Positions 5,502 through 50,814 of a stretch of DNA of 50,814 bases are shown in pieces. The position numbers were made by a program, and so were the translations under genes. Source of the DNA: an uncultured Coriobacteriales bacterium (GTDB taxonomy: Bacteria; Actinomycetota; Coriobacteriia; WRKU01; JAENWW01). Within the stretch, counting starts at the first letter, position 1; each line of letters begins with the position of its first letter. The DNA lies in NCBI GenBank assembly GCA_937858655.1, contig CALLZE010000194.1, positions 1 through 50,814 on the forward strand, given 5' to 3'. The notes beneath the pieces are model-generated. The model made no database searches. It saw only the letters and a list, made by a program, of their open reading frames with translations, and was not told where the DNA came from.

Positions 5502-6452
5502 CTATTTTTTCTTGCCCTTATCAAGTCTACCAAGATTATCGACTTTTGAGAGAAATTTGTTGTTCGAAATCAGTTGAGAAAAGGAAAATTTCTCGCTCGC
5601 GAGATTCAGGAGCAGCATGAAAAAGACATATACTGCCAGCGCGATATAGTGTGAACCACAACTGAAAACGATAAGGCATCCCGCTAAGACGCCAAAGGGA
5701 TTGGCGCCCGTGTCACCGAGCATGCCGAGTTCGCGCAAATCATAGCCGAAAATTGCTCCCAAAGGAATTAGCACAATCAAAGCGCTCAAAAGCGCAACGG
5801 GCAGATCGTTGGTGAATCCGACGATAATGAGTCCGATGATAGCCAACAAAAAGTATGCTTTGAGCGCGCGCCCTGGACGTAAATCGCAAAGATTTAAAAA
5901 GTTGCTCGTGAGAGCAATGCCCGCACCAGCAAGAAGGCCATATCCGGCTGCGGGGAGAAGCGTCTTCATCGTCATCACACTCGATTGCCCCACACCGTAC
6001 AGCACCATGCCGTTAGTTGTGGGAGCCATCATCATGGCCACCAAAAAAGCGGCAGCAGAAATACCGAACAACTTGAGGCCACCGGTAGTAAGTTTGCCGC
6101 TGAGCAACGACTTAATGTGTCCCTTAAATCCGCGCGAGGCACTTGATCCGTACACATCATCAACAAAGCCAAGGACCATCGAAATGAGAATCAAAATCAC
6201 AACAGGCAGCTGTGCAACAGGGCACAGCGACAAGATTGTATTCTTCAAAAACACGTGTAATGTGAGCATGCCAAGCGCGAAAAAGAGCCATACGAGGCCG
6301 AGGCCATACGCGACGGTGCGCCCCGCAAAATTTTGAGCTTGGGCAGCGGGTGCTTCACGAAGTGCTGGGAAAACAAGGCGCATACCGGCGAAACAGCACA
6401 CCCCTAAAATAAGAGTTGTAATAAGCGCAACAAGTAACGCTGAACTACTCAC
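5502..6452 (-). CDS. Polytopic membrane protein of the MraY/WecA (polyprenyl-phosphate N-acetylhexosamine-1-phosphate transferase, GT4) superfamily, divergent
   Basis: About 10 hydrophobic segments. GFVDDVYG, NFLNLCDLRPGRA (compare NxxNxxDGxDGL) and LGDTGANPFG (compare MGDTGS..LG) match the three cytoplasmic-loop motifs of this superfamily, but the DGxDG box is altered. The start ATGAGTAG overlaps the stop of the upstream 788-aa gene. Confidence 0.6.
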   Translation of the reverse strand: MSSSALLVALITTLILGVCCFAGMRLVFPALREAPAAQAQNFAGRTVAYGLGLVWLFFALGMLTLHVFLKNTILSLCPVAQLPVVILILISMVLGFVDDVYGSSASRGFKGHIKSLLSGKLTTGGLKLFGISAAAFLVAMMMAPTTNGMVLYGVGQSSVMTMKTLLPAAGYGLLAGAGIALTSNFLNLCDLRPGRALKAYFLLAIIGLIIVGFTNDLPVALLSALIVLIPLGAIFGYDLRELGMLGDTGANPFGVLAGCLIVFSCGSHYIALAVYVFFMLLLNLASEKFSFSQLISNNKFLSKVDNLGRLDKGKKK

Positions 6453-8811
6453 CCTTTGTCGACCTCTTTCCTACCACCAAATCAAGCATGAGCCAAACAA
6501 TACCGCATCCCAAATAGAGCACCATGAGCGCCGGGAGCACAACGCCCGAATCCTCAGTGAAGTACGCCACGGCACCCGACACAAGAATCGTCGTCATCCC
6601 TGAGCCAAAGTACGGGTTCTTGTTGAGCGTTATCGCAAACTCGCCCGCTGGTCGCCAGCGCATAAGGCTCAAAAACGCGATAACGGCAAGCAGAATCCAT
6701 ACGAGATTAGTGTGCGTTAGAACGCGGAAATTCGTTGTGACCTTTCGGACGATAATATCCCAAAGCTGCACGATGCCGCCCTGCTCCGCCGAATTGACCG
6801 CGCGCGCAAGATGGGTTTCTTGTCCCGAGCCAAACTTATCCAATGCAATAAACATACCCACAACGAGCACTACAATTAAAAACATAAGGACAATGCTCTT
6901 CCATGTGAGCTTTTTTTCATTCACAAGGAACCAGAGCAGCACAAAGCCAACCGTTGCCCACGCCGCAACACCAACGTTTGCACCCAGCATAGGAGCAGCG
7001 GAGACAAACATAGTAATAAAGCCAATAAGAGGGATACCCCATTTTTTAAGGAAAGGCACCCACCGAGCCGTTGGCCACTGGTCAAGCGTCATCACGATGC
7101 CAATAACAACAGCGCCAAAGAGAACAGCTGCGCCCTCATTTCCGATGCCATAAAAACGAGCTGCGGCAATAGGTGAATACCCAAAGAAACTAGTAAATGA
7201 CGCTGGCGCGCCAAGCAGTTGGTCAACCAAAATTACCAGAGAGGTCACACCCGAAAGGAAGATAAGTGGAACACGCGAGCCAAAGCGCCATGAGAGCGCA
7301 AGAGTAAGTAACCACAGCCCTGCCGCGACTACGAGAAGTTGAGCAGTAACCTGCAAAGGTGAGCCAGGCCAACGATAAATCAGGAACATGAGCCAACTCG
7401 ATGCTGGAACACTCAACACCGCTAAAATGAGCAAACGTATGGCGCGTCGGACCGCTGTTTTTGTACCCTCTCCCCAATGCTTAGGAGCACGAATAATGAC
7501 GATTGCTCCGAACACGAGAATCAATACCGTCAAAACAATAAAAGTGTTGAGGACAATGGGGCGGTTATTCTCAATAGAAACCGCCGTCTTATTCATCTTC
7601 TTCAGCAGGTCGATGCGATGCGCGGAACTGTCTTTCTCATCGCCCACTACGTTCACAGAATAGTGCGTTGTCGACTCCATCGAAGAGCCAAGCACTTCAA
7701 CGGGTTGCTGAATGTTTAAGACATCGAGAATGGTCGCCGAGAGGTCAAGGTTGGTCACAAGGCCCGCGCGCTGTGTTGAATCTGACGTGAGCAAACCAGT
7801 CTTAATGTTTGATATGACAATCGGTCCAAAGCCCTCTGAATCGACCTCTTTGTCCTTAGAAGCTTGAGCGGCAAGAATGACTGTGTCGTTTGGATAAAGA
7901 CTGCGAGCCATCTCATACATGTCATCAAGTTGAGAGAGAGCGTCGTTCCAGTTTTTCTCCGATACCTTATCAGTCACGACAGAATTGTAGTTATAGGCTC
8001 GATAAAGGTCGCCCGAATCGAGCACAACGAGACCAGGCTTATCGGCTGGCATCTGTTTTCGAATATTCTCTAATGATTTTGTCAGTTTTTGAATGTCGGT
8101 CGACACGCCATAGGGCGCCTGGCCGTCGCGCTTCAGCACTGACTCAGAGATGTCACCATAATCAACAACGCCCTTTTCATCCATCGCCGCAAGTGCCGCG
8201 GGACGAGCAAGACGTAGCGTCGTATCAGTAGAGTAGCCCAGGTCAGAGTTACCAAGCGCAGCGGTATAGCCGCCCGCCTTTTTAATTGTTGAGCCCAAAA
8301 GACCAGGAATCGCGTTGAACGTATTCTCGGCGTTAGCATTGATAATTCGTGGCAAGCCAAGATACACAATCGATTGGCTTTCGAGAGAGTTGCCCGTAAG
8401 ACGATTGTAAGCCTGAGCCGCGGTATCGAAATCAACCCGCTCATCGACGTTATAGGCAGAGAATGCGAGGTTATCAACTTTTGCCCACGCTCCCGCAGAA
8501 ACCGTCAACGCTCCCTCAGTAATTGAGGGCTCTCCGCTGTCCTCCTTGGCGCGCGAGCGTGCGTTGATGTCACCAACAGCACCCTTCTCCGCGGCACGAT
8601 ATATCGCCGGTGTTGTCTGGGGCGTAATGTCATCCCACGTTAAAAAGGGAGCAAGAATGAGAATAACTTTTGATGAAGCGACAGGCTGCCCAAAATCCTG
8701 AGTTTTTTTGTTCGTTTCAGCGTAAGCCGAAGACAAAAGCGCAAACATAAGAACGCTTACAAGGACAAATAAGGTGAGTGTTCTAGTGAGTTTTTTCATG
8801 AGTATCATCAT
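6445..8811 (-). CDS. Large envelope protein: signal peptide + ~400-aa extracytoplasmic domain + ~11-TM C-terminal domain, function unknown
   Basis: Signal peptide KKLTRTLTLFVLVSVLMFALLSSAYA-ET. The soluble domain ends with LVTNLDLSATILDVLNI, reminiscent of the D..PT(I/L)L motif at the end of alkaline-phosphatase/sulfatase-fold domains. It is followed by many hydrophobic helices. It is translationally coupled to the MraY/WecA-like gene. Confidence 0.6.
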   Translation of the reverse strand: MMILMKKLTRTLTLFVLVSVLMFALLSSAYAETNKKTQDFGQPVASSKVILILAPFLTWDDITPQTTPAIYRAAEKGAVGDINARSRAKEDSGEPSITEGALTVSAGAWAKVDNLAFSAYNVDERVDFDTAAQAYNRLTGNSLESQSIVYLGLPRIINANAENTFNAIPGLLGSTIKKAGGYTAALGNSDLGYSTDTTLRLARPAALAAMDEKGVVDYGDISESVLKRDGQAPYGVSTDIQKLTKSLENIRKQMPADKPGLVVLDSGDLYRAYNYNSVVTDKVSEKNWNDALSQLDDMYEMARSLYPNDTVILAAQASKDKEVDSEGFGPIVISNIKTGLLTSDSTQRAGLVTNLDLSATILDVLNIQQPVEVLGSSMESTTHYSVNVVGDEKDSSAHRIDLLKKMNKTAVSIENNRPIVLNTFIVLTVLILVFGAIVIIRAPKHWGEGTKTAVRRAIRLLILAVLSVPASSWLMFLIYRWPGSPLQVTAQLLVVAAGLWLLTLALSWRFGSRVPLIFLSGVTSLVILVDQLLGAPASFTSFFGYSPIAAARFYGIGNEGAAVLFGAVVIGIVMTLDQWPTARWVPFLKKWGIPLIGFITMFVSAAPMLGANVGVAAWATVGFVLLWFLVNEKKLTWKSIVLMFLIVVLVVGMFIALDKFGSGQETHLARAVNSAEQGGIVQLWDIIVRKVTTNFRVLTHTNLVWILLAVIAFLSLMRWRPAGEFAITLNKNPYFGSGMTTILVSGAVAYFTEDSGVVLPALMVLYLGCGIVWLMLDLVVGKRSTKGE

Positions 8812-13348: not shown

Positions 13349-14974
13349 TCAGGAGATGGCTGCGGATTCCAACAATTCGCGCGCGTGCGCACACGCCAAA
13401 TCGCTTACCTCGCCTGAAAGGAGACGAGCAATTTCCTTGATGCGCGTTTCGCCCCTTACCTCAGACACGGTCGTGACGGCCCGCGATGACTCTTCGCACT
13501 TTTCGACGACATAGTGTTTATCAGCATAGACCGCGACTTGGGCCAAATGAGTAATAACCAAAACTTGATGGTTGCGAGATAATTCTTTAAGACGACGCGC
13601 CACGCTTTGCGCCGTTGATCCACCAATACCTGCATCAATCTCATCAAAAACAAGAATCGATACTGCATCGCTTTTACCCAAGATTGTCTTGAGCGCAAGC
13701 ATGACGCGTGAAATTTCGCCACCAGAAGCAATCTTAGCCAAGGGCCTACAGGGCGCACTGGCAACAGGACTGTAGAGAAACTCGATTTTTTCGCTCCCCT
13801 CAAGCGTCCATTGCTCAAAGGGTAATTCATAAAATTCAACCTCAATGCGCGCATTCTCTAAAGCCAAATCGCGCAGTGAATCTCTCAGCTCGTCACAAAA
13901 ACGCCGCGCGGCCTGCGCACGCTTCACATGCAATTTCGCCGCTGCAGCCTCAAAATCTTGTCGAGCATTTTGGCAGTTTTTGCGCAGCTGATTCAAATAA
14001 AGTTCTGAATTATCCACAGCATCGATAAGCTCAGAGAGTTGTTCCTTCTTTTTTAATACTTCATCAAGAGAAGGCCCAAAACGTTTGCTCAATGATTCTA
14101 GTTCTTTAAGACGGTTCTGCATTTCGTCAAGCCGGCGCGGATCATGATCAACCGTTTGGGCATAGTCACGCATTGACGCCCCGATTTCTTGTGCCTCAAT
14201 AAGCAGTGAAGAAAGCTGTTGATGCGTGGCCTCAAAGCTAGCGTCATAGGTGAGCACGCGCTCCAAAGATGTAAGCGCGCGTGACAGCTGATCGCCCACG
14301 GCGCCCTCGCCCGTCATGAGTGCCCAAACCTCATCACTCGCCTGCGCGATTTCTTCACTATGAGCAAGCGCTGGAAGAGCACTGCGTAACTGTTCGTCTT
14401 CATCCGGCAAAGGATTGACACGCTCTATTTCCTGCAGGATTAACCGATTTGCCTCGAGAGCCCGCGAATCTTGAGCCGCCTGCTCCTGCAACTCCGTCAA
14501 AGCGCGGGATGCTTGCTCAAAGATATGTCGTGCCTCTTTATAGGCCGAAAGTTCCCCAGCAATGTCTTCGCCCGCATATGCGTCAAGAATTCCACGATGA
14601 AAGGCAGGTTTAAGCAATGTTTGATGATCATGTTGACCATGCAAATCAACGCGCAGGGCAAGCACGTCAGAAAGTGATTTAACGGGGACCATTTCGCCGT
14701 TGAGCATACACTTATTTCTACCTGCATTCGTAAGGGTACGCGACGCAATATACTCATCGTCGTTAAAATAAAAACGCCCCTCAACTTTCATTTCTTCCGC
14801 ATCAGGAGAAATTGTCTGTACATCTCCGCGCTGACCCAATAAAAGTTTAATGGCTGACATGAGTACGGTTTTTCCCGCGCCCGTTTCACCTGTGAGCACA
14901 TTAAGTCCCGGCGAGAACTCAAGCCATGCGTCTTCCACTAGAGCAAGATTTTGAATATGGAGTTCTTCGAGCAT
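13349..14974 (-). CDS. recN: DNA repair protein RecN
   Basis: MLEELHIQNLALVEDAWLEFSPGLNVLTGETGAGKT (Walker A), a long coiled-coil middle, then SGGEISRVMLALK (signature) and LVFDEIDAGIGG (Walker B). Confidence 0.97.
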   Translation of the reverse strand: MLEELHIQNLALVEDAWLEFSPGLNVLTGETGAGKTVLMSAIKLLLGQRGDVQTISPDAEEMKVEGRFYFNDDEYIASRTLTNAGRNKCMLNGEMVPVKSLSDVLALRVDLHGQHDHQTLLKPAFHRGILDAYAGEDIAGELSAYKEARHIFEQASRALTELQEQAAQDSRALEANRLILQEIERVNPLPDEDEQLRSALPALAHSEEIAQASDEVWALMTGEGAVGDQLSRALTSLERVLTYDASFEATHQQLSSLLIEAQEIGASMRDYAQTVDHDPRRLDEMQNRLKELESLSKRFGPSLDEVLKKKEQLSELIDAVDNSELYLNQLRKNCQNARQDFEAAAAKLHVKRAQAARRFCDELRDSLRDLALENARIEVEFYELPFEQWTLEGSEKIEFLYSPVASAPCRPLAKIASGGEISRVMLALKTILGKSDAVSILVFDEIDAGIGGSTAQSVARRLKELSRNHQVLVITHLAQVAVYADKHYVVEKCEESSRAVTTVSEVRGETRIKEIARLLSGEVSDLACAHARELLESAAIS

Positions 14975-33008: not shown

Positions 33009-33791
33009 CTATGAATTTGATAAATGCGAACGCATTGAGTCGAGCGATCTTCGTAAAATACGCGAGACCTGCATTTGAGAAATTCCTAAGGATCGCGCAA
33101 TATCTGTCTGAGAACACTCTTCGAAAAATCTGAGCCGAATGATAGTACGCGCGGTTTCATCAAGTTGAGACAACGCGTCTTCGAGGAGCTCGCGATCCTC
33201 GATATGATAAATCTCTAAATCATCTTTGCCGTAGTAATCAAGTATCGATAGTGCATCATCCGTTCCACACGTATCAACAGAATCATAACTCGTGGTTGCG
33301 TAAGCCTCGCTTGCTTCAAGTGCGTCAATAACCTCATCTTCAGAAACGCCGAGGTGCTGCGCGATAACGCCAATCGTTGGCACTTCCTGATTCTTTACCG
33401 AGAGAAACTCGATGGCCTTATTGACCTGAGCCGAAAGCTCTTGCATACGCCGCGGCACCTTAATGGCCCATCCTCGGTCGCGAAAATGTCGTTTAATTTC
33501 TCCCATAATTGTCGGGGTCGCATAGGTGGTGAATTCAAGATTGCGGTCAAGATCAAAACGCTCAATAGCCTTGAGGAGTCCTATCATGCCAACTTGTACC
33601 AAATCATCAAACGGTTCACCGCGGTTGCGAAATTTCGAAGCAAGATAACGGACAAGATTTGAATATGTTTCAGCAAGTTCATCGCGTGCGGCAAGGTCAT
33701 GATTCTCATGATAGCGAGCGAAAAGCTCGGCTGTTCTTTTTTTATCCCAATTAAGCCCTTTTGAGGACTTTGATCTGCAACGATTATGCAC
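33009..33791 (-). CDS. SigB/SigF/SigG-type (group 3) RNA polymerase sigma factor
   Basis: Region 2: FDDLVQVGMIGLLKAIERFDLDRNLEFTTYATPTIMGEIKRHFRDRGWAIKVPRRMQEL. Regions 3 and 4: EECSQTDIARSLGISQMQVSRILRRSL. Confidence 0.9.
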   Translation of the reverse strand: MHNRCRSKSSKGLNWDKKRTAELFARYHENHDLAARDELAETYSNLVRYLASKFRNRGEPFDDLVQVGMIGLLKAIERFDLDRNLEFTTYATPTIMGEIKRHFRDRGWAIKVPRRMQELSAQVNKAIEFLSVKNQEVPTIGVIAQHLGVSEDEVIDALEASEAYATTSYDSVDTCGTDDALSILDYYGKDDLEIYHIEDRELLEDALSQLDETARTIIRLRFFEECSQTDIARSLGISQMQVSRILRRSLDSMRSHLSNS

Positions 33792-34213: not shown

Positions 34214-34732
34214 CTAGTCTTTTACCTGAAAGTATGAAGTTTTTTTCTTTGACTTTGCGGATGCCGCAGTGGAAACATCCTCCCCTGCTGGTGCTGAGTT
34301 GGGCGCCTGAGCAGGAGCGCTCGCGGCTTTCTCCTCAAGTTGATGAGCCTTGTGGTCCGCTTTCTTCTGGCGCCACATTGAAAGAACGCGATCAGTAACG
34401 CCTGAGACAATTTCAACAGGGGCATTCACAAGGCCAGACACCGTGTCAGAAGCTTCCGCGACCCTCTCAGTTGTCTGTTCAAGGCTCGTGATAATGCCAT
34501 CGACACGAAGCATTTCGGCATTAACCGCGTCAATAGTCACTTCTGCCTTGTTGACAATAGGGAGAGCAGCATCGCGCAACTCGGCCATTGTCTTGGCTGC
34601 CTCGTTGGACGTTCTGCTCAGAGAATCTGTGAGTTCATTGACATGGCTTAAGGTACGAACAAGCGCAATGAGAACGATAACTCCCACAACAATCAGTAGT
34701 GCCAATAAAATTGTGATGAGATTTAATTCCAT
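34214..34732 (-). CDS. DUF948-like membrane-anchored coiled-coil protein
   Basis: An N-terminal TM helix (LITILLALLIVVGVIVLIALV) followed by helical repeats (LSHVNELTDSLSRTSNEAAKTMAELRDAALPIVNKAEVTIDAVNAE...). This is the architecture and composition I associate with DUF948/YtxH-type proteins. It ends 10 nt before the anti-sigma gene. Confidence 0.55.
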   Translation of the reverse strand: MELNLITILLALLIVVGVIVLIALVRTLSHVNELTDSLSRTSNEAAKTMAELRDAALPIVNKAEVTIDAVNAEMLRVDGIITSLEQTTERVAEASDTVSGLVNAPVEIVSGVTDRVLSMWRQKKADHKAHQLEEKAASAPAQAPNSAPAGEDVSTAASAKSKKKTSYFQVKD

Positions 34733-34771: not shown

Positions 34772-36088
34772 TTATTTACTTTTATACTTCTTATTATAGA
34801 TTTTTTCTTCAACACCTTGGCGTTTTGGCCGGTAAAACTCTGTTCCAAGCAAGTCATCGGGCAAGTATTGCTGCTGTACCCACCCTCCTTCGTAGTCATG
34901 AGGATAGAGATAATCACCATAAGCCTCAGAGCCAGGACGATGGCGGTCACGCAAGTGATTCGGTACACGATGAGCCTTGCCTTTTTTCACCTCGCGCAGC
35001 GCCTCGTTGATAGCCATATAGCAAGCGTTGCTCTTAGGAGCGCAAGCAAGGTATATAGCCGCGTGCGCAAGGTTTATGCGACATTCAGGCATACCAATCA
35101 CTTCGCACGCTTTAAAGGCCGCCTCCGCAACAAGAAGCGCATGAGGGTCGGCATTACCGATATCCTCTGATGCCAGAATAAACATACGGCGCGCGATAAA
35201 TTTCGGATCTTCCCCCCCGTCAAGCATATGAGCAAGCCAGTATACAGCCGCATCAGGATCGCTGCCACGCATCGACTTAATGAAAGCCGAGATTACATCA
35301 TAATGATTGTCGCCTTTTTTATCGTAGGGGATATTTTTCTGAGGGAGCACATCCTCCAAAATCGCTCGCGTAATGCGCGGCTTGGCTCCCTTTTTCTCAG
35401 GCCCCTTATGGAAAGCCACTTGCGCAGCCGATTCGAGTGTCGAGAGCGCTACGCGGGCGTCACCTCCCGCAAGTGAAACGAGCGCCTCAAGCGCATCTGG
35501 CTCAAGAGCATACTCATTCTTAAGCCCACGCTCTGAAGTGAGCGCTCGCGCGATAATCTCGCCAATTGCTTCATCGCTTAAATAGCCAAGTTCTACGACA
35601 CGTGAGCGGCTGACAAGCGGTGGGTTCACCTCGAAGTAGGGGTTTTCGGTGGTAGCGCCAATAAGAATCACCGTGCGATCTTCAACCGCATGCAATAGCG
35701 CATCCTGCTGAGATTTCGAAAAACGATGGATTTCATCAATAAAGAGAATGGTGCGCTGGCCCTGAATGCCTAAGCGAGTCTGCGCTTCCGCAATCGCTTT
35801 GCGCAAGTCAGCCACAGTGCCTGTCACGGCAGATACTTCATCAAAATAGGCATGTGTTGTTTGGGCAATTATGCGCGCGAGGCTTGTCTTTCCCGTGCCA
35901 GCGGGGCCGAAAAGAATGATTGAAGAGAGGGTGTCGCTGCTAATGGCATTGCGCAACCACGTACCTTCGCCAACGGCTGCTTCTTGTCCGCAGTATTCGT
36001 CAAGGGTTTGGGGGCGCATGCGAGCAGCAAGAGGAGCGACTTTCATCTTATTTTCATCGCTCATTGAGTCGAATAAAGAATTTTGCAA
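34772..36088 (-). CDS. rarA: Replication-associated recombination protein A (MgsA/RarA AAA+ ATPase)
   Basis: PLAARMRPQTLDEYCGQE, Walker A GPAGTGKTSLA, Walker B LFIDEIHRFSKSQQD, and the MgsA C-terminal block AAVYWLAHMLDGGEDPKFIARRM...SEDIGNADP. Confidence 0.95.
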   Translation of the reverse strand: MQNSLFDSMSDENKMKVAPLAARMRPQTLDEYCGQEAAVGEGTWLRNAISSDTLSSIILFGPAGTGKTSLARIIAQTTHAYFDEVSAVTGTVADLRKAIAEAQTRLGIQGQRTILFIDEIHRFSKSQQDALLHAVEDRTVILIGATTENPYFEVNPPLVSRSRVVELGYLSDEAIGEIIARALTSERGLKNEYALEPDALEALVSLAGGDARVALSTLESAAQVAFHKGPEKKGAKPRITRAILEDVLPQKNIPYDKKGDNHYDVISAFIKSMRGSDPDAAVYWLAHMLDGGEDPKFIARRMFILASEDIGNADPHALLVAEAAFKACEVIGMPECRINLAHAAIYLACAPKSNACYMAINEALREVKKGKAHRVPNHLRDRHRPGSEAYGDYLYPHDYEGGWVQQQYLPDDLLGTEFYRPKRQGVEEKIYNKKYKSK

Positions 36089-44346: not shown

Positions 44347-46584
44347 TCACCCTTTTTTACCTTTTTTCGCGGTCTTCTCGCCCGGCAGCGCACGGCGTGC
44401 TTCAAACACACCGTCAACCCCGCGCAAATCATTTACTAAAATATCGAGACGTGACATTTCGCCAATCTCAAAAAGAAAGCGCATATCAACCATGCCGTCT
44501 TTTTGCGTGGTCGTTGCTGAAGACAAGATATTGACGCCTGACTCAGCGATAAGCATTGTCACATCCTGCAAAAGACGCAAGCGATCGAGCGCTTGAATGA
44601 AAACTTCAACATGGTAGGTGGTTTTAGCCTTGCTATCCCATTCGACTTCAATAAGACGTTCTTGCGAGGCCATCAAGTTTGCCGCATTTGGACAGTTCGC
44701 GCGGTGCACTGATACACCGCGACCCCGCGTCACAAATCCAATAATCTCGTCACCTGGGACAGGATTGCAACATTTGGCCAATCGCACCAGCACATGGTCA
44801 ATGCCCTTGACGGAGATTCCATCACCGGGGTGCGACTTACGCGCGTGACGTGGTGGAGCCATAGGCATGTCAGGAGCAAGCTCTGCCTTTTCCTGCTGCT
44901 TATTTAGGGCATCTTCAGAAATCAGACCTTCCTTGGCCATATTTTTCAATATGCGTGTTGCTATGAGTTTGGCGCTCAGCTTGCCTGCGCCGATAGAAGC
45001 CACAAGGTCTTGAGCGGCAGTATAGTTCATTTCATCAGCGAGTTCTTGTAAGACTTTTTGAATACGCTTGCTCGTTATGGCAAGGCCATGTTTGCGCAAG
45101 GCCTTAACAAGCTCATCATGACCATGCTGCAAATCGTCTTCGCGCGTTGTCTTTGCTAAATAACTCTTAATTTTTGATTTCGCGGAACTCGTCCGAACAA
45201 TATTAAGCCAGTCACGTGAAGGATGAGCGTTTTTGTTGGTAAGTATTTCGACACGGTCGCCCATTTGCAACTCAGAGGCAAGCGGGACAATTTGCCCATT
45301 AACTTTAGCCCCAACGCAGTGATGGCCCACCTCAGTGTGGATAGCGAAAGCGAAATCGAGAGGTGTTGAACCTCGCTTGAGAGAGCGCACGTCGCCCTTC
45401 GGAGTGAAAACAAACACTTCTTCCTCAAAAAGGTCTACGCGCAAAGCGTCCATGAACTCTTTGGGGTCTTTGAGGTCCGTTTGCCACTCGAGCATCTGGC
45501 GCAGCCACGCAAGGCGTTCATCAAAGCTTTTGTCCTCTTGGAAGTTGCCCTCTTTGTAGCGCCAATGAGCCGCAACGCCGTATTCGGCCATACGGTGCAT
45601 TTCTTCGGTACGAATCTGAATCTCGAGAGGGCGACCAGAAGGGCCAATGACTGTCGTGTGCAACGATTGGTACATATTGAACTTAGGCATCGCGACATAA
45701 TCTTTAAAGCGTCCTGGCATCGGCTTGTACAGGCTGTGAACCGTTCCCAGCGCACCGTAAACATCCTTGACCGAGTCAACAATAATTCTCAGAGCAATAA
45801 GGTCGTAGATTTCACTGAAATCCTTACCCTTATTTATCATTTTCTGGTAAATGCTATACAAGTGCTTTGGGCGTCCACCAATCTCCGCCTTAATATGCAC
45901 CGATTCAAGTTCTTCTTGGATTTCTTCCATAACCTGCGCTGCGTATGCTTTTCGCTGGTCGCGACTCTCACGAACCATGCGAGAAATCTGTTCATACTTA
46001 ACGGGGTCAAGATACGAAAACGCGAGGTCTTCAAGCTCCCACTTGATTTGAGAAATGCCCAAACGGTGAGCAAGTGGCGCAAAAATATCCATTGTTTCGC
46101 GCGCTTTAACAAGTTGGCGCTCAGGCTTTAGCGCACTGAGAGTACGCATATTATGCAAACGGTCGGCAAGTTTGACGAGAATGACGCGGATATCACGCGC
46201 CATGGCGATGAGCATTTTGCGCATCGACTCGCTTTGCTGCTCGCTGTTGGTTTCAAAATCAATGCGGCCCAACTTCGTGACACCATCCACAAGAGAAGCC
46301 ACCTCTTCGCCAAATTCTTTCTGAACAGATGCAAGCGTGACATCAGGCGAATCCTCAACGGTGTCGTGAAGCATCGCTGCTTGAATAGTGGCGAGGTCCA
46401 TATTGAGGTCGGCCAAAATCAGCGCAGTGTTTAAGGGGTGAATTATAAAAGGTTCACCACTTTTGCGCTTTTGACCTTCATGCGCTTTCTCTGCAAACTC
46501 ATAAGTCTTGCGCAACAGGTTAACGTCAGCTGCTGGATTATTTGCGAGTACACGCTCTTCTATTTGTCCATAAATTACATTCAT
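44347..46584 (-). CDS. relA: Bifunctional (p)ppGpp synthetase/hydrolase (RSH, Rel/SpoT type)
   Basis: HD hydrolase domain (GEPFIIHPL...HDTVED), synthetase (KHLYSIYQKM...DLIALRIIV...YQSLHTTV), and TGS, then a C-terminal ACT-like domain. Length is 745 aa. Confidence 0.97.
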   Translation of the reverse strand: MNVIYGQIEERVLANNPAADVNLLRKTYEFAEKAHEGQKRKSGEPFIIHPLNTALILADLNMDLATIQAAMLHDTVEDSPDVTLASVQKEFGEEVASLVDGVTKLGRIDFETNSEQQSESMRKMLIAMARDIRVILVKLADRLHNMRTLSALKPERQLVKARETMDIFAPLAHRLGISQIKWELEDLAFSYLDPVKYEQISRMVRESRDQRKAYAAQVMEEIQEELESVHIKAEIGGRPKHLYSIYQKMINKGKDFSEIYDLIALRIIVDSVKDVYGALGTVHSLYKPMPGRFKDYVAMPKFNMYQSLHTTVIGPSGRPLEIQIRTEEMHRMAEYGVAAHWRYKEGNFQEDKSFDERLAWLRQMLEWQTDLKDPKEFMDALRVDLFEEEVFVFTPKGDVRSLKRGSTPLDFAFAIHTEVGHHCVGAKVNGQIVPLASELQMGDRVEILTNKNAHPSRDWLNIVRTSSAKSKIKSYLAKTTREDDLQHGHDELVKALRKHGLAITSKRIQKVLQELADEMNYTAAQDLVASIGAGKLSAKLIATRILKNMAKEGLISEDALNKQQEKAELAPDMPMAPPRHARKSHPGDGISVKGIDHVLVRLAKCCNPVPGDEIIGFVTRGRGVSVHRANCPNAANLMASQERLIEVEWDSKAKTTYHVEVFIQALDRLRLLQDVTMLIAESGVNILSSATTTQKDGMVDMRFLFEIGEMSRLDILVNDLRGVDGVFEARRALPGEKTAKKGKKG

Positions 46585-46632: not shown

Positions 46633-49600
46633 TTATTGAACAACCGTCACATTTAGGGCCTGCGCGTTAGGCAAAATGGGCTTATTAAACCGCTCAAGCA
46701 AATCAATGCTATCTGCCAGTAATACCCATTCTCTGAATGAATCGAAACTCTCGATTTCATCAAGACCTTCGCTGTAACGCGTACTCATGGTGAGATCGAG
46801 CTTACCTGTCACAGGCAACATCTCGATAGTTCGGGCAACACTGCGACCTTCGGTTGATAAAAATCCAAGATCTCGAAAAACGCCGATGCCTGTCGAGATG
46901 CTCTTATCATCCACTTTGGCGACCCCTTTGGGGATATAGGCATTCGCGCGCGTGGCAATATCAGCATTACTTATGCTGAAACAATTACCCTCTTTCATTT
47001 CGATATCTTTCAGCGCCTTATACACCGCCGCGAGCGCGTCGCGCTGCGGGGCAAGAGACTGCAAGATGTATTCGTTGATGCGCGCGTCTTTTTTGCCAAA
47101 GAGCAGATGAATAGTCGCAGTAGCACCATCACGCCCACCGCGGCCCGCCATCTGATTAAACTCAACATCATTAAAGGGCAGATGATAGAGGACGACGTGA
47201 CGAATATCAGGAATGTTTACGCCTTCACCGAAAGCGGACGTTGCAATACAAAACTCCACTTCCCCTGTGCGGAATCGGCGCTCAATCTCATGGCGCGCCA
47301 CTTTGGTGAGTCCGCCATGATAGAAGGCCGTTTTCCATGCCAAATTGCCCACAGCCTTGCGCACAATACGCGCAATCTTAACCGCTTCCTCGCGTGAGTT
47401 CACATACACAACCGTCTTTTCTTGCTTACGAGCAAGATCAAGAATAAAGCGCTCTTTGTGCTCATGATTACGCTGGTCATCAATGACTAGATTATTTCGC
47501 ACACTCGGATCGAGTACCGCGTCAGTGATATGAAGTGTTTCGATAATACGTTGAGCAACCTCATCGGAAGCTGTTGCAGTCACCGCAAGCGTTGCCGGTA
47601 GCGAACCGTCACTATTGACTGCTCCAAGAGCATGACCCAGTTGTGCGTAGGCAGGACGATTTCCTGCGCGCGCTTGCCCGATATGGTGAGCTTCATCGAC
47701 CACAACGAAGCCGATTCGATTGGCGGGCGCGAATTCGCTGCCATGAAAGTGCAAGTACTCAGGCGTTGTAAGCACTATGTCGAGCGTACCCTCTTTGAGT
47801 GCCTCAAATGCCTCAGTTTGGTGAGTTTTTGAAGTCTCTCCTGTTACAACGGCAACTTCTAGGCCGAGTTCAGAAAAAGTCTCTTTGAGGTGAAAAGCCT
47901 GATCGGCAACAAGGGCACGCAAGGGATAAACGAAAATGCTTGCTTTATTGTGAAGGAGCGCCATTTTTGCCGCATGCATATGGAAAATGAGCGACTTACC
48001 CCGCCCTGTCGCCATAACAGTCAACACATTGCGACCACGCTCCAGAAGTTCGAGAGAGCGCTCTTGAGCTCCATGAAGACTGCCTTGTCCGATAAACGTT
48101 TCAATTAAGTACGCCTGCAACTCTTGGGCGCTCAGCCTTGATAGCGCCTTTCTTCTGCTGGCGCGGTAGTGGCGCGCTTCCTCTTGAAGAGCAAGCGATT
48201 CCTTACGCGCAATTTCGACATTAACACCGCGCGATTTGCCCTCGTTGCCTCCCGTTACTGACCCAAGCGCAACGGTATACTCAACCCCCTCATCGAGAGC
48301 AGGTGCAATCACCGCCGCAAGATCACGGTTTAAAAATCCAATTTGAGCTTCGAGCCGAGGCGCGTACACGGCGACCGCTTGGGGGTCATACTCATTAAGG
48401 GGGTCTCGTCTCAATATGAGCGCTTCATCATCGACAAGACGCGCAATCACTTCTTGACGTCCCTCGAATGTTACCCCCGCGAGTTTTGTAAAGAATGAAT
48501 GAGCCTCGAGAATGCCTTCGTACTCTCGTGATTTGAGCGAATCATCCGCAGAAGCGAAAAGTTCATCGAGAAACTCATGCGCCTCCTTGTCAGCGTCATC
48601 CTCTTCAAGAAGAGGCTCGCTTAAAATATCTATACTTTGAACCATAAGTTGCAGGCGTTTATGTCCCTGCCATGTATCAATTTCAAAACGATACGAGATA
48701 TTGGCGAGTTGCTCCGCGCCCAAGGCTCGCTCAATGCCGGGACATCTGAAGAAAATGGCGGGAACTTGCGCACCGTTTTCATAAGCTTGGAACTTGAGAT
48801 GCTGGCCTTCTTTACCAACGGTACAGGTGTTTTTCATCATGATGGCATGAGATAAAAACAGTGGTCGCTTATTGGCTTCGCCGAAAGGCTCAAGAAGCGC
48901 AATTTCGTCGGCGAGACTCACTGATAGTTCGTCTATGCTGGTGCTAGCATCAATAAATTTTCGACTTCTGCGCGCCTCAAGAGGGAGCGTTTCAAGGTAA
49001 GCATAGAGCTCTTCTTTAAAAGCATCGAGATTATTGACATCTACCGCAAGGCCCGCTGCTCCCGCGTGACCACCATAGCGCAACAAATGACTAGAACAGC
49101 ATTCGAGCGCCTGAAATAAATCAATAGAACCCACGGAGCGCGCCGAACCAATCGCAATGCCATCCTCAATTGAACATAAAATGGTAGGCACATTATATTT
49201 CTGGGCGATGCGAGAAGCGACTATTCCTTTTACGCCGTCATGCCAACCCTCACCCGCCACAACAATGGCAGGTTCGCCCTGATAGGTGCGCTCAAGCAAA
49301 GCGCTCACGCCTTGGCTTAAATCAGCCTCAGCCATCTGACGCGTCTTATTGTGCTCATCGAGAATAAGCGCTAATCGAGCAGCCTCAAGTGGGTCATTCT
49401 CAAGCAACAGCGCAAGAGCATCAACCGGAGAAGCAACACGGCCAGCAGCATTGAGTCGGGGAGCAAGAGTGAACGAGATTTTTTCTGATGTTAGGGAGTC
49501 AAGAGGAACCTTTGCGAGCGCAGCCAATGCCGCGATGCCCACATTGGGGTTGACGCGCATCTTCTCCAAGCCAGCTGCCACCAACGCTCGGTTTTCTCCC

Positions 49601-50361
49601 AAGAGAGGCATAACGTCAGCGACGGTACCCAGCGTAGCGAGATCAACAAATTCTCGCCATAGCGCTGGCTTTCCCATGCTTTGAGACACGGCCTGAACTA
49701 ATTTAAGAGCGACGCCCGCTCCCGCAAGCTGGCTGCCGTCATCACTATAATTCGCATCAAGTTTAGGGTTTGCGATAGCAATCCCTTGAGGCAATAAATC
49801 ACCGGGCTCATGATGATCGGTCACCACCACATCAAGCCCCTGCTCGCGCAGAAGTGTTATTTCTGGCGCGGCAGAAATGCCACAGTCAACCGTAAGTACT
49901 AAATTCGGTCGCTTAGCTAGAATGCGCTCAACTGCCGCGGGAGTGAGACCGTAGCCATCTTCGAGCCTGCGAGGCAAGATTGCTTCGACATTTCCGCCAC
50001 AGGCACGCAACCCACGCAAGGCGAGCGCCGTCGCGCTGATCCCATCAAGATCGTAGTCACCAAAGACGCAAATGCGCTCGTGATTTTCGATAGCAGTTCT
50101 GACCCGCTCTGCCACCTCTTTAATGCCGGGCAATAAAAGAGGATTCTTCCAATCGCGTGCAAGTGATGGCTCCAGAAAGCGGCGCGCGGTATGCGCGTCA
50201 TTAAGCCCGCGACTTGACAGAATTCGCGCGAAAAGACGCGAGACCGACAGCTCTTCCTCTAAGGTGCGCACAGCATCTTCGTCGAATTCAGCTTGTACAA
50301 ACTCATACTCTGGACACCCAGAGGGTTTTTGAAATTGATTATTCATAGGTGTGCATCTCAA
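46633..50361 (-). CDS. recJ: RecJ exonuclease - HIRAN - RecQ-family helicase fusion protein (1242 codons)
   Basis: aa 1-580 are RecJ: VFGDYDLDG, TVDCG, VVTDHHEP, GTVADVMPL, GGHAGAAG. aa ~622-720 are HIRAN-like: LAGVTFEGRQ..LRRDPLNEYDPQAVAVY..IGFLNRDLAAVIAPALDEG. aa ~750-1100 are a RecQ core: MATGRGKS, VYPLRALVADQ, VVVDEAHHIG..NRPAY, VTATA, QMAGRGGRDG. The track start is a TTG at 50361. The first ATG (MNNQF) is at 50346. Confidence 0.85.
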   Translation of the reverse strand: MRCTPMNNQFQKPSGCPEYEFVQAEFDEDAVRTLEEELSVSRLFARILSSRGLNDAHTARRFLEPSLARDWKNPLLLPGIKEVAERVRTAIENHERICVFGDYDLDGISATALALRGLRACGGNVEAILPRRLEDGYGLTPAAVERILAKRPNLVLTVDCGISAAPEITLLREQGLDVVVTDHHEPGDLLPQGIAIANPKLDANYSDDGSQLAGAGVALKLVQAVSQSMGKPALWREFVDLATLGTVADVMPLLGENRALVAAGLEKMRVNPNVGIAALAALAKVPLDSLTSEKISFTLAPRLNAAGRVASPVDALALLLENDPLEAARLALILDEHNKTRQMAEADLSQGVSALLERTYQGEPAIVVAGEGWHDGVKGIVASRIAQKYNVPTILCSIEDGIAIGSARSVGSIDLFQALECCSSHLLRYGGHAGAAGLAVDVNNLDAFKEELYAYLETLPLEARRSRKFIDASTSIDELSVSLADEIALLEPFGEANKRPLFLSHAIMMKNTCTVGKEGQHLKFQAYENGAQVPAIFFRCPGIERALGAEQLANISYRFEIDTWQGHKRLQLMVQSIDILSEPLLEEDDADKEAHEFLDELFASADDSLKSREYEGILEAHSFFTKLAGVTFEGRQEVIARLVDDEALILRRDPLNEYDPQAVAVYAPRLEAQIGFLNRDLAAVIAPALDEGVEYTVALGSVTGGNEGKSRGVNVEIARKESLALQEEARHYRASRRKALSRLSAQELQAYLIETFIGQGSLHGAQERSLELLERGRNVLTVMATGRGKSLIFHMHAAKMALLHNKASIFVYPLRALVADQAFHLKETFSELGLEVAVVTGETSKTHQTEAFEALKEGTLDIVLTTPEYLHFHGSEFAPANRIGFVVVDEAHHIGQARAGNRPAYAQLGHALGAVNSDGSLPATLAVTATASDEVAQRIIETLHITDAVLDPSVRNNLVIDDQRNHEHKERFILDLARKQEKTVVYVNSREEAVKIARIVRKAVGNLAWKTAFYHGGLTKVARHEIERRFRTGEVEFCIATSAFGEGVNIPDIRHVVLYHLPFNDVEFNQMAGRGGRDGATATIHLLFGKKDARINEYILQSLAPQRDALAAVYKALKDIEMKEGNCFSISNADIATRANAYIPKGVAKVDDKSISTGIGVFRDLGFLSTEGRSVARTIEMLPVTGKLDLTMSTRYSEGLDEIESFDSFREWVLLADSIDLLERFNKPILPNAQALNVTVVQ

Positions 50362-50381: not shown

Positions 50382-50428
50382 TAATAATAACCGAGGGGAC
50401 CGACATTTGAAAATGCCAGTCCCCTCGG
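50382..50428 (-). terminator. Rho-independent terminator of secF
   Basis: A 10-bp perfect stem CCGAGGGGAC (50391-50400) / GTCCCCTCGG (50419-50428) with an 18-nt loop. On the minus strand it is followed by TTATTATTAAAG. Confidence 0.6.
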
Positions 50429-50471: not shown

Positions 50472-50814
50472 CTAGGCTGCTGCCTCAGTCTTCTTGCCAT
50501 CCTTGCCATACTTCTTACGAAGAGAAGCGTACTTTGGCTCAGTTTCCTTCCACATAGTGTAGAGAGGAGCCGCAAGACCGATTGAAGAATAAGCGCCAAC
50601 GGCCAAACCAATGGTGAGCGCAAGAGCAAAACCATTGAGAGCGTCAACATTAAAGACAAGCATAACAACTACAGGGAGCAGTGAGGTGATGGTCGTGTTG
50701 ATGGAACGAGCAAATACCTCGTTGATTGAGAGGTTCGCCATCTCCATAAACGACATCTTGCTCAAATTGGTCGTGTTCTCCTTGATACGTCCAAATACTA
50801 CAACGGTATCGTAG
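50472..50814 (-). CDS. secF: Protein translocase subunit SecF (or SecDF), C-terminal part; 5' end outside the window
   Basis: The frame stays open to the window edge: DTVVVFGRIKENTTNLSKMSFMEMANLSINEVFARSINTTITSLLPVVVMLVF...LAVGAYSSIGLAAPLY. This is the conserved SecF DT(I/V)VVFDRIREN block plus the last two TM helices. Confidence 0.88.
   Translation of the reverse strand, partial: YDTVVVFGRIKENTTNLSKMSFMEMANLSINEVFARSINTTITSLLPVVVMLVFNVDALNGFALALTIGLAVGAYSSIGLAAPLYTMWKETEPKYASLRKKYGKDGKKTEAAA

Follow-up and report, generated by a model that had tools for sequence, protein, structure and literature searches.

A RecJ exonuclease fused to a HIRAN domain, a RecQ-like helicase and a predicted winged helix in Coriobacteriia

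A gene in a 50,814-nucleotide stretch of DNA from an uncultured Coriobacteriales bacterium (contig CALLZE010000194.1; the whole stretch is referred to here as the window) is a RecJ orthologue that carries on its C terminus a HIRAN - RecQ-like helicase - winged-helix module, which also occurs separately, and the fusion is probably a single-chain 5'-end resection enzyme in which unwinding is coupled to degradation. The open reading frame (ORF; 46633..50361, minus strand, as for all window features written with two dots below) runs uninterrupted for 1242 codons, as an earlier note made from the sequence alone had claimed, with no frameshift or stop in the ORF listing and with the same ORF continuous in relatives. 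Pfam recognizes six domains in the protein, all above their gathering cut-offs and in the order that the note had proposed, and the nucleotide ranges assigned there to three modules agree with those converted from amino acid (aa) positions. The start codon is ambiguous, since TTG at 50361 gives 1242 aa and ATG at 50346 gives 1237 aa (as in the database model, P0001); there is no clear Shine-Dalgarno sequence at either start (50346-50361, minus strand).

The N-terminal half is organized as a complete RecJ, with a DHH domain (49624..50076; aa 96-246, Pfam 75.3 bits), a DHHA1 domain (48991..49269; aa 365-457, 51.1 bits) and an OB-fold domain (48637..48954; aa 470-575, PF17768 RecJ_OB, 84.5 bits), the part of RecJ that closes the hole for ssDNA. 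It matches the NCBIfam recJ equivalog TIGR00644 at 472.4 bits against a cut-off of 396.9, with aa 41-576 aligned to positions 2-545 of the 546-position model, and the completeness claimed in the note is borne out by these two sets of scores. Motifs I (GDYDLDG), II (TVDCG) and III (TDHH) lie within the DHH domain, motif IV (VADV, aa 247-250) is just C-terminal of it, and the DHHA1 domain contains the GGH motif. These metal and phosphate ligands are invariant in an alignment of 68 full-length homologues (51-85% identity), to which the statements of invariance for the RecJ, HIRAN, and helicase motifs refer. By Foldseek, the predicted structure of this half is similar to that of RecJ bound to DNA (5f55; E 2e-45, 35% identity over 569 columns), and its OB-fold to RecJ structures 5f55, 8y30, and 2zxo. 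By family score and motifs this half is a bona fide RecJ, with a predicted 5'-3' exonuclease activity on single-stranded DNA (ssDNA).

The RecJ half is followed by an acidic linker (EPLLEEDDADKEAHE) and a conserved pre-HIRAN helix (F..LF..A), together spanning 48499..48630 as seen in the translation, the alignment, and the structure model; the acidic sequence reported earlier, EPLLEEDDADKEAHEF, is present in the translation. The linker region is conserved across homologues, and the pre-HIRAN helix is assigned to the helicase module because stand-alone HIRAN-helicase proteins have it too. AlphaFold2 models aa 43-1242 with confidence (mean predicted local distance difference test score [pLDDT], 89.5; predicted template modelling score [pTM], 0.73), and at the RecJ-HIRAN junction the pLDDT is lowest at the acidic linker, in blocks of 69-80.

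The HIRAN domain (48202..48498; aa 622-720) matches PF08797 at aa 622-695 with 38.2 bits (E 1.3e-9; gathering cut-off, 24.7), and the corresponding segments of homologues score 45-51 bits. When a profile of 19 HIRAN segments of the family is compared with all PDB sequences, the only matches are the HIRAN domain of HLTF (2mzn, 5bnh, 4xzf, 4s0n, and 4xzg; E about 4e-11, the best being 3.7e-11) and the bacterial HIRAN protein lp_0118 (3k2y; E 1.9e-8), and this restriction to HIRAN structures together with the Pfam score confirms the segment that the note had pointed out. The invariant blocks are TK..GV, R...N..D..A, and G..N. The sequence RRDPLNEYDPQA lines up residue for residue with RDPNNPYDKNA of HLTF, the family motif being RDPxNxYDxNA, and its YD pair is what we take to be Y93 and D94 in HLTF numbering. 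The Asp at aa 659, equivalent to D94, is invariant in the family, whereas the position of Tyr 658 varies (Y/F/H/V/A); the Phe of GVTFEG falls at the Y72 position in a hand alignment, such that the window protein has aromatic residues at both the Y72 and Y93 stacking positions. HLTF uses D94 to recognize the 3'-OH of the primer and grips the two terminal bases between Y72 and Y93 (PMC5773155; PMC4666394). The HIRAN domain of the fusion may likewise bind free 3'-OH ssDNA ends.

A helical connector (48070..48201; aa 721-764) leads to the RecQ-type motif 0 (..LHGAQ..), of which the Gln at aa 766 is invariant. The first RecA-like domain of the helicase (DEAD, 47554..48069; aa 765-936, 88 bits in Pfam) contains motifs I (MATGRGKS), Ia (YPLRALVADQ), Ib (TTPE), II (DEAHH, then ..NRPAY), and III (TATA), and the second (Helicase_C, 47125..47445; aa 973-1079, 90.2 bits) contains motifs IV (YVNSR), V (TSAFGEGVN), and VI (QMAGRGGRDG). 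Motifs 0, I, Ia, Ib, and II to VI are all invariant, motif Ia as PLRALVADQ and motif VI as QMxGRxGRDG. The closest solved relatives by sequence are Escherichia coli RecQ (1oyw; E 1e-31, with the alignment spanning motif 0 to motif VI), Cronobacter sakazakii RecQ, WRN, RECQ4, RECQ1, RECQ5, and BLM, and Foldseek likewise places the predicted structure of the helicase part with RecQ, WRN, RECQL5, and BLM.

The C-terminal domain (46636..47064; aa 1100-1242) is a predicted winged helix (∼aa 1107-1181) followed by a long helix, with a conserved (F/I)N(R/K)PI(L/Y)P motif in its tail and 15 invariant columns in the region. Two structure models agree on a helix-strand-helix-helix-strand-strand winged-helix topology and on the long helix that follows; Foldseek with this domain gives weak generic winged-helix matches (best E 4.8e-3), with no RecQ RQC domain among the top 50. 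The earlier note had left these ∼140 aa unassigned; the prediction gives the region a winged helix and a helical tail. The note had also concluded that the zinc-binding, RQC, and HRDC modules of RecQ are lacking. At the level of sequence this stands: Pfam searches give no match to the zinc-binding subdomain (PF16124, at E<=1), RQC (PF09382), or HRDC (PF00570), the C-terminal domain has no conserved Cys, and only one Cys follows motif VI in the translation, the four zinc Cys of RecQ being absent. HRDC itself is common but not universal among RecQ family members. However, because the C-terminal region is a predicted winged helix, an RQC-like element may exist in structure and not in sequence, and in the models the winged helix would occupy the place of the RQC winged helix of RecQ.

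This architecture is not rare, and the survey shows it to be the standard RecJ in a large part of Coriobacteriia. A search of 5.8 billion proteins finds at least 120 full-length proteins (1170-1310 aa, 50-84% identity), and the Pfam set is the same in the at least 120 proteins listed except for partial P0009 and P0109 (no ResIII). A scan with one genome per species gives at least 594 relatives, and nearly all of the best 80 loci have one intact ORF of about 1210-1270 aa. HMMER with the C-terminal half gives 535 clusters (50% identity) at E<=1e-30, and the best 150 of these 535 are mostly ∼1200-aa proteins matched at residues ∼580-1210 and thus represent the same fusion, down to 29-34% identity. 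Altogether more than 160 full-length homologues have the same layout at 29-85% identity, and the full-length fusion proteins come from NCBI, JGI, ENA, and Logan assemblies. The carriers are mostly Coriobacteriia (Olsenella, Parafannyhessea, and many metagenome-assembled genomes [MAGs]), including the cultured Olsenella porci, O. kribbiana, Parafannyhessea umbonata, Kribbibacterium absianum, and Collinsella tanakaei, with further MAG carriers whose bins are labelled Clostridia (MDD2401180.1), Peptococcaceae (MDO4281270.1), and Armatimonadota (MBI4279602.1). Wherever the protein is named, it is annotated only as "single-stranded-DNA-specific exonuclease RecJ". In agreement with the note, no description of the architecture was found in open-access PMC papers and bioRxiv preprints; since public databases contain it under the name RecJ, it is uncharacterized rather than undiscovered.

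The breadth of this distribution also bears on whether adjacent recJ and helicase genes could have been merged through an error in sequencing or assembly. The ORF is split in two at L058 and L071, 2 of the 80 related loci, but more than 160 independent full-length proteins, cultured genomes included, have a continuous layout with a conserved linker. A split into separate genes is excluded because the full-length ORF is conserved in many genomes, and the chance of such an artefact is negligible. At the two split loci, both in MAGs, the fusion is present as two overlapping ORFs (L058, 5839-9535; L071, 5863-9695), which could reflect a frameshift, a pseudogene, or an assembly indel.

Four natural forms of the protein or its module are seen. 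The form in the window, RecJ-HIRAN-helicase-winged helix, is the first. The second is RecJ-helicase-winged helix without HIRAN and is found in Collinsella, Slackia, and related gut Coriobacteriia. At four Collinsella loci (L077-L080, with matches from about 6001 to between 9192 and 9225), window aa ∼3-603 and ∼734-1233 align, with limits that vary from locus to locus, and only about 20-45 subject residues lie between them. Proteins of this form are 1046-1137 aa long, one of them from a Slackia MAG (P0171, Slackia cluster), and none of four (P0147, P0171, P0185, and P0210) has a Pfam match to HIRAN, which looks like secondary loss of this domain. The third form is the stand-alone HIRAN-helicase-winged-helix protein (633-677 aa), of which P0167 and P0144 align with the C-terminal half of the fusion over its entire length, from the pre-HIRAN helix to the C-terminal INRPIYP, at 38-42% identity. 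Their genes (L081, 6001-7974, for P0167; L082, 265-2193, for P0144) are located among small ORFs and HTH_3 repressor pairs, with neighbours matching phrog_10048, phrog_5889, and phrog_37082 (E 1e-40 to 1e-57; all PHROG families of unknown function), and no recJ adjoins the stand-alone gene at either of these two inspected loci. The fourth form, P0260, is the Armatimonadota MAG protein MBI4279602.1, in which the RecJ and HIRAN motifs are intact and helicase motifs I, II, V, and VI are destroyed, with GRGKS of motif I changed to GSRS and DEAH of motif II to DDLG; its sequence suggests a pseudo-helicase variant.

A neighbour-joining tree of the helicase and C-terminal domain from 69 fused, HIRAN-less, and stand-alone sequences is star-like, with the stand-alone proteins scattered among deep fused branches; several short 'stand-alone' entries in it are probably contig-end fragments. 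Among catalogued phages, tblastn against INPHARED returns only generic RecQ-like cores (<30% identity, HIRAN not covered), a scan of IMG/VR gives one moderate match (L083, 34% identity) at a contig end, and Foldseek against BFVD finds no viral protein spanning both halves of the fusion. Because these searches gave generic or contig-end matches, the link of the module to prophages comes from L081 and L082 only.

In the window, the fusion gene lies in the order secF, fusion, relA, and a metallo-β-lactamase-fold (MBL) hydrolase gene, with hisS, aspS, rarA, a sigma factor gene, and alaS further downstream. The upstream ORF (50472..50765) reads in translation as the C-terminal portion of a membrane protein like SecF, and the downstream gene is read as a relA/spoT-type (p)ppGpp synthetase/hydrolase (44347..46584; 745 aa, assigned from translation and position); where related loci extend far enough downstream, the fusion is in most cases likewise followed by an ORF, usually of 740-800 aa and at most about 840. 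Given the RecJ score and this synteny, the fusion is the organism's recJ with extra domains and not an island gene. The secF-fusion interval contains a strong hairpin (50383..50428) with 17 paired positions (10 G-C) followed by T-rich TTATTATT, and its resemblance to an intrinsic terminator suggests that the fusion gene is not simply cotranscribed with secF. Weak promoter-like hexamers at 50413-50384 overlap the hairpin.

Elsewhere, the window codes for CTP synthase, murJ, dxs, aroB, and a RecN-like SMC_N/AAA_23 protein (13349..14974; 541 aa), and the rarA gene noted above codes for a RarA/MgsA-type AAA ATPase (34772..36088; 438 aa); neither of the latter two is adjacent to the fusion. The sigma factor is of the SigB/SigF/SigG family (33009..33791; TIGR02980, 275 bits), and a 172-aa ORF between its gene and rarA (34214..34732) has no NCBIfam match at E<=1e-10. 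A 788-aa ORF (6445..8811) with housekeeping neighbours matches no Pfam family at E<=1e-8.

In E. coli, RecQ (3'-5') and RecJ (5'-3') cooperate in RecFOR-pathway resection and in degradation of the nascent lagging strand, and a 3'-5' motor on one strand and a 5'-3' exonuclease on the complementary strand move in the same direction along the duplex. As a single-chain resection enzyme, the fusion would use its HIRAN domain to capture, and perhaps fray, a free 3'-OH end at a break, gap, or fork; the superfamily 2 (SF2) motor would then load on that strand and move 3'-5', while the winged helix held on to the duplex or split it; the displaced 5'-ended strand would pass into the RecJ active site for 5'-3' degradation; and a 3' single-stranded tail would remain for RecA loading. 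Both the hand-off of the strand between helicase and RecJ and the in vivo substrate are what we infer from the parts. HIRAN has been lost in Collinsella and Slackia and yet the RecJ-helicase link is kept, so that the coupling of nuclease to motor is what has been selected, suggesting that the coupling is the core of the enzyme and HIRAN a targeting accessory. The earlier note had envisaged a self-contained resection or fork-remodelling machine; the strand polarities of the parts fit such a machine, but its operation as one is a proposal.

Several observations weigh against this resection enzyme. The motor scores below both RecQ family cut-offs in NCBIfam (recQ_fam, TIGR00614, 164.9 bits against 219.8; recQ, TIGR01389, 182.1 bits against 640.2, with only model positions 7-359 of 591 aligned), and in the loop after DEAH it keeps R-P-x-Y, but the aromatic W and F of E. 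coli RecQ (DEAHCISQWGHDFRPEY) are both replaced (DEAHHIGQARAGNRPAY). Its core resembles defence-associated RecQ-like helicases as much as RecQ (PADLOC models DpdF, 193 bits, and PsyrT, 182 bits). The RecQ-family core proposed in the note is thus supported by RecQ-type motifs and significant scores but not by family membership, and on its sequence the helicase is RecQ-like, not a RecQ family member; its 3'-5' polarity is predicted only from the similarity to RecQ. Moreover, the stand-alone relatives sit in prophage-like DNA, and the ancestral role of the helicase module may therefore differ, and the P0260 lineage has destroyed its ATPase motifs and kept RecJ and HIRAN, so the motor is not always required.

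The main rival, which is compatible with action at ends, has the same chemistry directed at a stalled fork or daughter-strand gap and not at a double-strand end. HIRAN would sit on the nascent leading-strand 3' end, like the HIRAN domain of HLTF and the 3'-end-binding domain of PriA, the nascent lagging strand would be unwound and degraded by RecJ, and the gap would be enlarged for RecFOR/RecA loading or restart. At forks blocked by UV damage, E. coli uses RecQ and RecJ to degrade the nascent lagging strand, and RarA-like and RecN-like genes are present in the window, but these two are ordinary housekeeping genes that lie many kilobases from the fusion and share no operon with it. The known role of HIRAN is 3'-end recognition at forks (PMC4666394; PMC5773155), and yet the domain is dispensable in Collinsella and Slackia. 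The sequence does not discriminate fork from end substrates, and a fork- or gap-specific role is overall unlikely.

Less probable still is that two independent enzymes are merely joined for coexpression, stoichiometry, or colocalization, with no direct hand-off, in which case the helicase and winged helix might, like RecQ, carry out branch migration or disrupt secondary structure or G-quadruplex (G4) DNA. The module does occur as a stand-alone protein elsewhere, an acidic linker with the lowest pLDDT of the junction separates it from RecJ, and PHROG matches include a 'Holliday junction branch migration helicase'. However, the fusion is kept over 29-85% identity, also in HIRAN-less proteins with linkers of only about 20-45 aa, and conservation over such divergence, including these very short linkers, points to selection on the physical coupling; the pTM for a 1200-residue multidomain model also suggests a defined arrangement. 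It is very unlikely that the helicase derives from a mobile element or defence system and that the fusion acts against phage or foreign DNA and not in chromosome repair. The surroundings of the stand-alone homologues (small ORFs, HTH_3 repressors, and members of PHROG families) and the good scores of the core against DpdF and PsyrT are in line with such an origin, but the secF-recJ-relA housekeeping position is conserved in the window and related loci, no partner defence genes adjoin the fusion in the window, and the PADLOC matches are confined to the generic helicase core (about 8-368 of the 610 model positions) and no better than those to RecQ. Membership of the fusion in a defence system was rejected on the generic extent of the PADLOC matches and on the housekeeping synteny.

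A bolder extension of the resection enzyme, possible but doubtful, is that the fusion serves Coriobacteriia and some Clostridia as their principal machine for end and gap resection and may stand in for separate RecQ and RecJ, or even for AddAB/RecBCD; HIRAN would then sense 3' ends, fray the terminus, and license unwinding coupled to 5' degradation. If true, a bacterial HIRAN domain would for the first time have a defined function in the cell, and the natural fusion would show the RecQ-RecJ partnership to be a direct physical hand-off. So far, RecQ-type helicases and RecJ have been known as separate proteins that cooperate in bacterial fork processing and recombination, and the route of the displaced 5' strand from one to the other is not settled; that a natural fusion of the two is conserved argues strongly, on comparative grounds, that they act as a physical unit. 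It also places HIRAN, the function of which is so far understood only from the eukaryotic HLTF/Rad5 proteins, in a bacterial housekeeping repair enzyme, and makes both the strand hand-off and bacterial HIRAN function directly testable. The fusion offers a compact one-protein system for the study of coupled unwinding and degradation by biochemistry and cryo-electron microscopy, and its four forms (with HIRAN, without HIRAN, with a dead helicase, and as a stand-alone prophage module) provide ready material for taking its functions apart. Gut and oral genera (Olsenella, Collinsella, Slackia, and Parafannyhessea) are among the carriers, and the current "RecJ" annotation conceals half of the protein.

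The fusion combines features of several known systems. With E. coli RecQ and RecJ it shares the same two enzyme classes with complementary strand polarities, but it is one polypeptide with HIRAN between them, and its helicase is without the zinc subdomain, a detectable RQC, and HRDC. As in HLTF and Rad5, HIRAN is N-terminal to an SF2 ATPase, and RDPxNxYDxxA is conserved, including the Asp that reads the 3'-OH; however, the motor of HLTF is an SNF2 double-stranded DNA translocase with a RING E3 ligase and no nuclease, whereas that of the fusion is RecQ-like (its SNF2 Pfam score of 19.6 bits is below the cut-off) and is joined to a 5'-3' exonuclease. WRN also has an N-terminal exonuclease and a RecQ-type helicase in one chain, with a winged helix after the core, and its helicase structures rank among the closest structural matches to the fusion helicase, but the WRN nuclease is DnaQ-like and 3'-5' rather than DHH and 5'-3', and WRN has zinc, RQC, and HRDC modules and no HIRAN. 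RecBCD, AddAB, AdnAB, and Dna2/Sgs1 similarly couple a motor to a nuclease to make 3' ssDNA tails, although with SF1 motors, PD-(D/E)XK nucleases, several subunits, and unrelated folds, and no sequence similarity of the fusion to them was seen. The stand-alone HIRAN-helicase proteins (P0167 and P0144, in prophage-like surroundings) and lp_0118 (3k2y) have no RecJ part and are uncharacterized. Motor-nuclease machines (RecBCD, AddAB, AdnAB, WRN, Dna2-Sgs1, and Cas3), the RecQ-RecJ partnership, and the HIRAN-SF2 arrangement of HLTF/Rad5 are thus known already, and what is new is the covalent joining of a DHH 5'-3' exonuclease, a HIRAN domain, a RecQ-like core without zinc or HRDC modules, and a winged helix.

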